Origin: a plasmid
NCBI RefSeq assembly: GCF_054482525.1
Contig: NZ_JBTHVG010000001.1
Reading direction: 5' to 3' (one strand)
DNA length: 1,545 nt
Every line of letters starts with the position of its first letter. Within the stretch, counting starts at the first letter, position 1. The translations under genes and the position numbers were made by a program. Positions 173 through 666 of this stretch are shown piece after piece. Below the pieces are notes generated by a model that saw nothing but the letters and a program-made list of their open reading frames with translations, made no database searches and was not told the origin of the DNA.

Positions 173-476
173 GCCACCTCTCGCATGTTGTCGGTGATTC
201 CGCTGTTGTTCTTCTGGGGATGAGTCGTCAGACAGCCCTTCAAACGCGCTCAGAAGCTCTCAGACGCACGAAACGGGATTTAAATGCCCGTCAGGGCATG
301 GAAGGCGCGAAAAACGCTTACAGAGCGTTTCAGGAGGTCAGGCGCGCCGATACCCCTAGCCAGGGGCTTTCAGGTCGCCAGGAACCGCGTCAGCCCCCTG
401 CAAAGCCCATTTGCACGGTACAGGCAGCCACTCGGTTGGTAGGTGGTCGTAGACCGTCGGTGTTACAGCGATGGGG

Positions 477-526
477 GTCTGGGGTTCTCCCCAGACGGTT
501 TCCGGTTGCGCTCAAGGCGCTGCCGG
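477..526. other. Two adjacent strong stem-loops in a GC-rich, probably non-coding region (candidate structured RNA or origin secondary structure)
   Basis: Stem-loop A: gtctgggg (477..484), loop ttct, ccccagac (489..496), 8 perfect base pairs. Stem-loop B: ccggttgcgc (502..511), loop tcaag, gcgctgccgg (517..526), 10-bp stem with one mismatch and one G-T wobble. Further hairpins at 286..297 (gcccgtcagggc) and 312..330 (aaacgct / agcgttt). Confidence 0.45.
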
Positions 527-666
527 AACCGTGGCGGCTCGGTCGTTCTGGAGATCGGGGAGCAAAAACACGCAAGGGATTTTGAGGCGGCAAAAGAGCA
601 ATGCAGGATAGACAATCATGGTCAGAACGTTAACACGTAACCCCTGATTGTCCGCCTGCCGCTGGC

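Follow-up and report, generated by a model that had tools for sequence, protein, structure and literature searches.

The question raised by this locus is what stands at positions 175-640 of a complete circular plasmid of 1,545 bases (contig NZ_JBTHVG010000001.1; the whole sequence is referred to here as the window), where a ColE1-type replication origin would be expected from the neighboring ColE1-type primosome assembly site (pas) and origin of transfer (oriT). An earlier sequence-only reading described a structured, GC-rich region without the ColE1 core and proposed that RNA-primed initiation had been lost or had strongly diverged. The region is not a degraded or diverged ColE1 origin but a conserved non-coding module, separately maintained beside origins that are not of the ColE1 type and endowed with a covarying core of its own. 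With a probability of roughly 0.6, it makes up the right-hand side of a non-coding, portable cassette for priming on single-stranded DNA (ssDNA), composed of the pas and an element that resembles the primase "G site" of plasmids such as R100.

A conserved non-coding module in place of a ColE1 origin

Base composition and folding agree with the earlier description of the region. Its GC content is 57.9%, compared with 43.8% at 667-1300 (the replication gene repA and the vegetative origin, oriV) and 51.3% in the whole window. The ssDNA fold of 100-660 modestly beats shuffled sequences (z = -2.3 on the + strand and -2.6 on the - strand), and single hairpins are stronger against shuffles (280-410, z = -3.0; 470-535, z = -4.7; 598-665, z = -4.9). 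BLASTN against ColE1 (NC_001371) at word size 7 returns three matches only, at 1367-1431 (91% identity), 111-172 (82%), and 50-73 (an oriT arm), and no similarity within 175-640. The pMB1 core motifs ttccataggctcc and ctataaagatacc are absent from the window with up to 3 mismatches allowed, and an Rfam search of the window at E ≤ 10 yields neither RNAI (RF00106) nor any other credible family, while RNAI is detected in ColE1 as a positive control (73.8 bits, E = 2e-13). No sigma-70-like promoter is predicted inside 175-640.

BLASTN and the covariance-model search, the two ways in which the sequence-only reading had proposed to look for RNAI and RNAII, matched nothing in 175-640 and bear out its statement that these RNAs and the core motifs are missing. 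Its suggestion that the region is transcribed on the minus strand is unsupported, with no promoter prediction and no RNA family. The three short similarities to ColE1-type origins that it listed do exist, but their positions were off by 1-7 bases: attccgctgtt lies at 197-207 (given as 204-214), cagccact at 425-432 (427-434), and aagggattttg at 574-584 (575-585). They fall outside every ColE1 alignment and are therefore treated as chance matches. Relative to ColE1 and pMB1, the flanking pas and oriT are alike and keep the ColE1 order, but the origin, RNAI, and RNAII are missing, and replication is attributed to RepA and repeats as in plasmid pKL1. The ColE1 RefSeq record itself carries a coding sequence for a 52-residue "replication initiation protein" within the RNAII region (L006 784-942), which looks like a legacy mis-annotation.

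The module is common. PLSDB holds 834 records that match 175-640, and 558 of 5,426 complete E. coli genomes match 280-540, with 714 of the 718 places located on plasmids. The stretch 280-540 is identical, with equal coordinates, in NZ_CP182202.1 (E. coli EC130, from a pig). Alignment of diverse copies resolves a pas (83-172) followed by blocks B (175-279), C (280-473), D (474-537), and E (561-660). These and an annotated open reading frame (ORF) that overlaps them are as follows:

1-585, + strand: ORF annotated as "rep protein" (WP_224706374.1) in RefSeq NZ_CP182202.1; spurious
83-172, - strand: ColE1-type primosome assembly site (phiX174/n'-type single-strand initiation signal, ssi), 82% identical to ColE1 1308-1367
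175-279, no strand assigned: B block, a variable spacer between the pas and the three-hairpin element, delimited by alignment of copies
474-537, no strand assigned: D block, two adjacent GC-rich hairpins (ssDNA fold z = -4.7)
477-484/489-496 and 497-505/523-530, the latter with inner helix 508-511/517-520: the D-block hairpins
561-660, - strand: E block, with a long imperfect hairpin at 603-660 (fold z = -4.9 on the minus strand)

The pas and the C block recur beside the origins of plasmids with unrelated initiators, and across five Rep types the module tracks the replication genes. In IncX4 plasmids rep comes first, then two DnaA boxes and five 22-bp iterons, next an A+T-rich stretch, and finally pas, B, and the start of C (hairpin 1); this origin-proximal copy lies ~0.7 kb from rep and ~6 kb from the relaxosome gene taxA. 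IncX1 also carries the module beside its origin. The locus L003 encodes an IncFII-like RepA (NF040977, E = 5e-15, below the curated cutoff), followed by a downstream origin with a DnaA box and an AT-rich region, the C block ~100 bp beyond it, and then the pas. A RepL plasmid carries the module as well, and Sodalis pSG1 has two copies, beside a broken replication initiator gene. The pas is conserved together with downstream blocks in the IncX4, IncX1, IncFII-like, RepL, and Sodalis plasmids. Recurring as it does beside the origins of unrelated initiators, the module is better explained as a self-contained, cis-acting cassette linked to replication than as a ColE1 origin in decay.

The motif GAAGCGG, which marks phiX174-type pas on the active strand and is also found in ColE1, occurs at 116-122 on the minus strand only. 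From its orientation in phiX174 and ColE1, the active strand of the pas is probably the minus strand, and the homology of 83-172 to the lagging-strand pas of ColE1, together with GAAGCGG on that strand, identifies it by sequence as a phiX174-type pas. The B block is present in IncX4, IncX1, and most small relatives; in L003, L009, L010, L012, and the Sodalis copy L135, other sequence takes its place or breaks it up. No motif, promoter, or ORF support was found in the block.

The module is non-coding, and the RefSeq "rep protein" call is spurious. The ORF at 1-585, with whose ATG the record NZ_CP182202.1 begins, spans the oriT arm, the pas, and the three-hairpin element. Of 64 relatives with at least 85% identity, 58 have the frame broken by stops or frameshifts. 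Indels of 1, 2, 4, 5, 7, 8, and 10 nt are common among relatives. Substitutions at codon positions 1, 2, and 3 number 607, 938, and 668, with no third-position bias, and the 194-residue product has no NCBIfam or Pfam match.

The three-hairpin element and its likeness to G sites

The core of the module lies in the C block and comprises the following parts:

280-374, + strand: three-hairpin element (122 bits with covariance model R1; single copy in the window)
284-299, + strand: hairpin 1, ATGCCC-GTCA-GGGCAT (arms 284-289/294-299)
298-305, + strand: invariant ATGGAAGG
305-310/343-348, + strand: helix 2, GGCGCG/CGCGCC, enclosing 32 variable nt and followed by GATA
353-366, + strand: hairpin 3, CCCCT-AGCC-AGGGG (arms 353-357/362-366)
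398-407, + strand: CTGCAAAGCC, 31 nt beyond hairpin 3, a candidate primase start (CTG at 398-400)
408-473, + strand: C-block tail, a conserved extension of the element recognized by homology to L003

Homology to L003 spans 284-473 at 80% identity. A small additional hairpin, GCAAA/TTTGC at 400-404/410-414, persists among relatives with variable loops.

Model R1 was built from 14 window-family sequences, with no R100 sequence included. Beyond the window it picks up more remote copies whose stems carry compensatory changes, four of them in IncX4 (three strong, one weak) and others in Sodalis, IncX1, and an IncF plasmid. In an alignment of 62 distinct members, pairing holds in 96% of cells, and both sides change at 10 of 17 base pairs; none of 500 shuffles reaches the observed value, and slid controls pair at 35-59%. 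Whole stems are replaced with the geometry preserved: hairpin 1 occurs as ATGCCC/GGGCAT, ATGCCGC/GCGGCAT, ATCCGC/GCGGAT, and ATGCGC/GCGCAT; helix 2 as GGCGCG/CGCGCC, GGGGCG/CGCCCC, GGCGG/CCGCC, and GGCCA/TGGCC; and hairpin 3 as CCCCT/AGGGG, CCCGC/GCGGG, and CCGGC/GCCGG. Compensatory changes are seen in the R100, IncX4, Sodalis, and Pantoea copies. L003 has an unrelated sequence inside helix 2, and in the short forms L024 and L166 nothing but a 3-nt loop is left there.

The IncX4 plasmid NZ_CP119125.1 (L247) has three to four copies, at 2580-2673 and 4660-4753 on the + strand and at 6472-6568 and 856-925 on the - strand. Two identical IncX4 copies sit in intergenic gaps between taxA and rep, opposite the coding strand, and one adjoins the iteron origin.

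R100, whose basic replicon has a known primase G site, was selected for comparison beforehand on that account. Model R1 gives exactly two matches in 58 kb of its sequence, both full length. The first (L014 4428-4523, - strand; 23.2 bits, E = 0.0024-0.0055) reads ATGCCGC-ATCA-GCGGCAT-GGAA-GGCGG-(33 nt)-CCGCC-GAAG-C-CCGGC-GTAA-GCCGG-TA-CTG, and its CTG lies ~415 nt beyond the DnaA-box/AT-rich region of oriR on the rightward leading-strand template. In position and strand it agrees with the G site and in vivo leading-strand start of R1 and R100, reportedly located ~400 bp past oriR and likewise on the template of the leading strand. The second match (L013 49846-49941, - strand; 20.6 bits, E = 0.0085) lies in the leading region on the transferred strand and differs from the first by compensatory changes in helix 2 and hairpin 3; its neighbors are a DUF932 gene and a lytic transglycosylase gene. 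The metagenomic sequences L155, L152, and L177 bridge the two types, with a window-type 5' half and an R100-type 3' half of the form GAAG CCCGC GTCA GCGGG.

A weak match between window 225-277 and R100 (L014 4333-4385; E = 0.04) is centered on CGCGCxCAGAAGCTCTC and adjoins the three-hairpin element in both plasmids, on opposite sides. The IncF plasmid CP027641.1 (L136, 3836-4400) combines both element types with a pas within ~500 bp; the window-type one has a damaged hairpin 1, and the R100-type one is on the opposite strand from it.

The G sites of R1 and R100 are reportedly primase-dependent single-strand initiation signals, studied by Masai & Arai in 1989, Bahk in 1988, Tanaka et al. in 1994, and Bernander et al. 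in 1992. The element of R100 shares with the window the succession of hairpin 1, GGAA, helix 2 with an interior of ~32 nt, GAAG or GATA, and hairpin 3. "Domain II" of the G sites is reportedly non-essential, which fits the dispensable interior of helix 2 in the window family. The element ends in CTG, and L003 places its copy equally relative to repA and the origin. As for differences, the similarity to the window loses significance once the structure term is left out, hairpin 3 and the CTG are separated by 31 additional nt in the window, and its host replicon is instead of the pKL1 type, with a helix-turn-helix (HTH) RepA and oriV upstream of repA. Taken together, the core of the window probably belongs to the same family as the element downstream of oriR in R100, and it is most likely a primase G site.

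The candidate start resembles that of phage G4. CTGCAAAGCC is the same 10 nt as the annotated primer start of the G4 complementary-strand origin (primer 3970-3997, origin 3998, sequence ...ccctaCTGCAAAGCC) and matches the window once, with 0.01 matches expected by chance. Its conservation across 93 relatives is 0.84-0.96, and that of the CTG at 398-400 is 0.95-0.96; L003 keeps the 10-mer as CCCCCTGCTAAGC. In both G4 and the window the identical 10 nt, with its CTG trinucleotide, lies 3' of stem-loops on the (here, proposed) template strand, but the stem-loops are unrelated. BLAST against G4 gives no similarity, and no homology to G4 stem-loops I-III is found. Phage and plasmid G sites are reported to be alike only near the start. 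Within 175-640, CTG occurs 6 times on the + strand and 18 times on the - strand (as CAG on +).

Strand geometry, proposed function, and alternatives

The remaining features of the plasmid are as follows:

667-1146, - strand: repA, encoding a pKL1-type HTH replication initiator of 159 residues (Pfam HTH_36, E = 4e-6)
1150-1335, no strand assigned: oriV, with inverted and direct repeats at 1157-1272, an A+T-rich stretch at 1275-1325, and an integration host factor (IHF) consensus at 1293-1305
1365-1431, + strand: ColE1-type oriT (bom), 91% identical over 1367-1431 to ColE1 1457-1521

The three-hairpin element is on the + strand and the pas motif on the - strand. With the two on opposite strands, a fork moving from high to low coordinates would have the element on the template of its leading strand and the pas on that of its lagging strand. 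Such a fork would start at oriV and pass repA co-directionally with its transcription. The same arrangement occurs in L003, assuming an R1-like fork direction, and, mirrored, in R100. Regarding transfer, the nick is predicted on the + strand between 1422 and 1423. In ColE1 the corresponding sequence CTGG/CTTA lies on the minus strand of NC_001371 at 1469-1462, the same strand as + in the window, and it matches the MbeA nick site reported by Varsaki et al. in 2003. This position of the nick makes + the transferred strand. The element then follows ~400-520 nt behind the 5' end of the transferred strand, which is also the template strand of repA. The leading-region copy of R100 fits the same transferred-strand pattern, as would the two additional IncX4 copies, opposite the coding strand of an apparent leading region.

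Under the proposed mechanism, the + strand element would fold when the DNA becomes single-stranded and would be recognized most likely by DnaG primase together with ssDNA-binding protein (SSB), as at a plasmid G site. A primer would be laid from the CTG at 398-400 towards lower coordinates. The ssDNA may arise behind a helicase loaded by RepA at oriV, or it may be the transferred strand arriving in a recipient after ColE1-type mobilization, which priming would convert to duplex; the element may therefore matter for vegetative replication, for establishment after transfer, or for both. The pas on the opposite strand would load the PriA primosome for synthesis of the other strand. Single-strand initiation signals have been described for R6K, R100, ColE1, ColE2, ColIb, and RSF1010 (PMC7690428). 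Of these, ssiA and ssiB of RSF1010 are likewise two priming signals on opposite strands beside an iteron/A+T-rich origin, but RSF1010 uses its own RepB' primase and 40-nt repeats, whereas the present plasmid has no primase and its two signals are of different kinds.

Several observations weigh against this assignment. In both the window and IncX4, the short path from the A+T-rich region meets the pas on the leading-strand template; this opposite polarity leaves L003 as the one case of clear R1-like geometry. Because the alignment used for covariation had been fitted to the model, it leans towards structure, and mismatches of the G:T and A:C kinds (13 and 17) are uninformative about which strand is functional. 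In origin-proximal IncX4 copies, an A:C mismatch in hairpin 1 would be G:T on the other strand. A window-specific hairpin at 312-330 was rejected as a feature, being unconserved and carrying G:G at 316/326 in 62 of 93 relatives. The link to R100 has its own difficulties. The sequence-only nhmmer profile of the window family gives E = 5.4 against R100 and no significant link to R100, G4, or ColE1, and BLAST of the R100 region shows no bridging sequences among the matches listed (more than 5,000 IncF records). Control loci, taken from a scan of genome contigs for the pattern ATGCCN{6,8}GGCATGGAAGGCG and mostly chance matches in GC-rich genomes, carry the 24-26-nt combination of hairpin 1 and GGAAGGCG and score mostly 12-18 bits but up to ~21-23; the 23.2 and 20.6 bits of R100 are thus largely due to that motif. 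The other top scorers in this control are IncF contaminants and Pantoea plasmid copies. The CTG stands 31 nt beyond hairpin 3 in the window and 2 nt beyond it in R100. Model R1 has no match in phage G4, which agrees with the likeness of phage and plasmid G sites reportedly being confined to the start.

The closest rival, though an unlikely one, is that the + strand element is itself a PriA-dependent, phiX174-type pas, so that the cassette would be an oppositely oriented pas pair as in ColE1 and pBR322. Its conserved flank GGAAGGCGCG resembles the GAAGCGG and GAAGCGCGG motifs of n' sites, pBR322 has GCCCGTCAGGGC near its second n' site with a stem-loop core identical to that of hairpin 1, and two signals on opposite strands suit the geometry. 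This is countered by the R100 element, which shares the architecture, stands at the expected position of the G site on the leading-strand template, and ends in TA-CTG, as well as by the conservation of the G4-identical CTGCAAAGCC and by the failure of BLAST to align the element to the ColE1 region. An improbable alternative is a relaxase or HUH-nuclease hairpin, that is, an orphan oriT for mobilization by IncX, IncF, or other conjugative plasmids. A hairpin next to the invariant single-stranded flank ATGGAAGG has the usual shape of such sites, copies lie in or near the leading regions of R100 and IncX4, and small plasmids with two oriTs, such as pBuzz, are known. An IncX oriT is nonetheless rejected on account of the 6-kb distance of the origin-proximal copy from taxA and of the several copies per plasmid (three to four, on both strands). 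Of the two R100 copies, one is found past oriR at a long distance from oriT, and the module follows the replication genes of five Rep types. Similarly improbable is a structured RNA, whether it acts as a small regulator or provides transcription terminators and insulators beyond repA. Covarying helices fit RNA as well as ssDNA, and the 603-660 hairpin stands between the repA stop, which it adjoins, and a short T-rich run; yet 175-640 has no promoter-like site and no Rfam family, the sense strand of the element is opposite to repA, the hairpins at 477-530 lack U-tracts, and copies occur in either orientation relative to neighboring genes, beside A+T-rich origin regions. As for a Frpo-type single-stranded promoter, no promoter-like hexamers were found in 175-640, and the hairpins are short (5-8 bp) and GC-rich.

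The remaining candidates have very little chance of being correct. A badly diverged ColE1-type origin still producing primer RNA would occupy the same place relative to pas and oriT as in ColE1, but 175-640 lacks ColE1 similarity, core motifs, RNAI, and promoters, the same module is present in IncX, IncFII-like, and RepL replicons, and pKL1 relatives replicate through RepA according to the literature. A cer-like multimer resolution site would meet a usual need of small high-copy plasmids; XerC/XerD arms with a 6-8-nt spacer and an ArgR box were not found with mismatches allowed, and there is no similarity to the ColE1 record, which contains cer. A search for DnaA boxes likewise found none. The notion that the ORF at 1-585 is a real "rep protein" gene has the RefSeq annotation in its favor and, against it, the broken frame in 58 of 64 relatives, the lack of third-position bias, and the lack of a family match. 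Priming on ssDNA by a G-site-like element paired with a pas remains the preferred account of 175-640.

The host plasmid and the meaning of the module

The plasmid is a member of the already known pKL1/Col(MG828) family of small cryptic plasmids, for which Rep-based replication is known, and not a new chimera; the backbone order and replicon type are the same, with no difference of substance. The earlier view that ColE1-like pas and oriT modules are joined to a Rep-protein and repeat module is confirmed by BLASTN and by collinearity with pKL1, in a combination that this family already had. pKL1 (NC_002145) aligns over 38-1545 at 82% overall and at 91% over 38-506, and its RepA shares 124 of 159 residues (78%) with that of the window, where repA is the only real gene. 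Approximately 25 plasmids of 1,560-1,566 bp are 96-98% identical to the window, and relatives are typed as Col(MG828). pKL1 has reportedly been studied experimentally by Burian et al. in 1997, 1999, and 2003.

The pKL1-type backbone, with both the repeats and the IHF box upstream of repA, is present in the window. In pKL1, an oriV that includes RepA sites and an IHF box has been reported to precede rep, and the repeats, A+T-rich stretch, and IHF consensus upstream of repA are consistent with this position (PMC3832669). Two 4.9-kb plasmids from Salmonella and E. coli (L008 and L137) have a pKL1-type HTH RepA gene adjoining a Rop gene; typed as Col(MG828) plus rep_cluster_2392, they look like hybrids of both replicon types. 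A 1,197-bp "plasmid" (NZ_CP027139) considered as a natural minimal replicon was set aside, as the record is linear, incomplete, and uninformative. Near the oriT, a 34-nt inverted repeat (50-83 and 1357-1390, 88% complementary) forms a second, inverted ColE1-type oriT arm; on the circle, the two arms lie on either side of the nick region, with the junction between them.

The D block shows compensatory stem changes in L154 and L211, and its loop or inner arm is exactly inverted in a flip-flop manner in L209, L211, and L213 (TTCT to AGAA; TTGCGCTCAAGGCGCTG to CAGCGCCTTGAGCGCAA). From these sequence patterns, its hairpins are probably extruded in vivo. The block is missing from L003 and IncX4 and partly present in IncX1, and no known counterpart was found. 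The E-block hairpin comes directly after the repA stop codon (667-669), with ATTGCTCTTTTG next on the minus strand; it may be the repA terminator, although a scan for terminator consensus did not flag it. Parts of the E block recur, in different contexts, in IncX1, IncX4, and a Yersinia pestis plasmid.

Some database occurrences are best read as artifacts. Copies of the plasmid or of IncF DNA appear in assemblies labelled Streptococcus parasanguinis, Flagellimonas pelagia, Streptomyces capoamus, Streptomyces morookaense, and a Lachnospiraceae metagenome-assembled genome, and the copies in such misfit-species assemblies (L053, L056, L067, L028, and L079) are probably contamination. BLAST of a phage collection returned only mislabelled copies of this plasmid, three "Escherichia phage" records of 1.4-1.9 kb (H71-H73).

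Single-strand initiation signals have been known since the 1980s, and the element opens no new field but joins them as a common, structurally well-defined, and unannotated member. Approximately one in ten complete E. coli genomes has it on a plasmid, where annotation pipelines leave the region blank or call a spurious "rep protein". A priming cassette would explain how strands are initiated in a one-gene plasmid of 1.5 kb and why the same non-coding block travels among IncX, IncF-like, RepL, and pKL1-type replicons. With a covariance model of the element, priming signals and the polarity of leading or transferred strands could be annotated in thousands of plasmids.

More tentatively, the pas and the three-hairpin element may constitute a replicon-independent, horizontally exchanged priming cassette, and the three-hairpin family, in its long and short forms, a widespread, unannotated class of ssDNA signal. 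If so, the element would be used both at vegetative origins and, in multiple copies, on the transferred strand of leading regions, as in R100, IncX4, and Pantoea, and the neighboring double hairpin (474-537), which shows flip-flop inversions, would represent another signal not yet described. For hitchhiker plasmids that carry an oriT and no relaxase, the cassette would provide a complementary-strand origin that permits establishment before RepA can be made, and it is predicted to be a cis-acting determinant of their establishment after mobilization.

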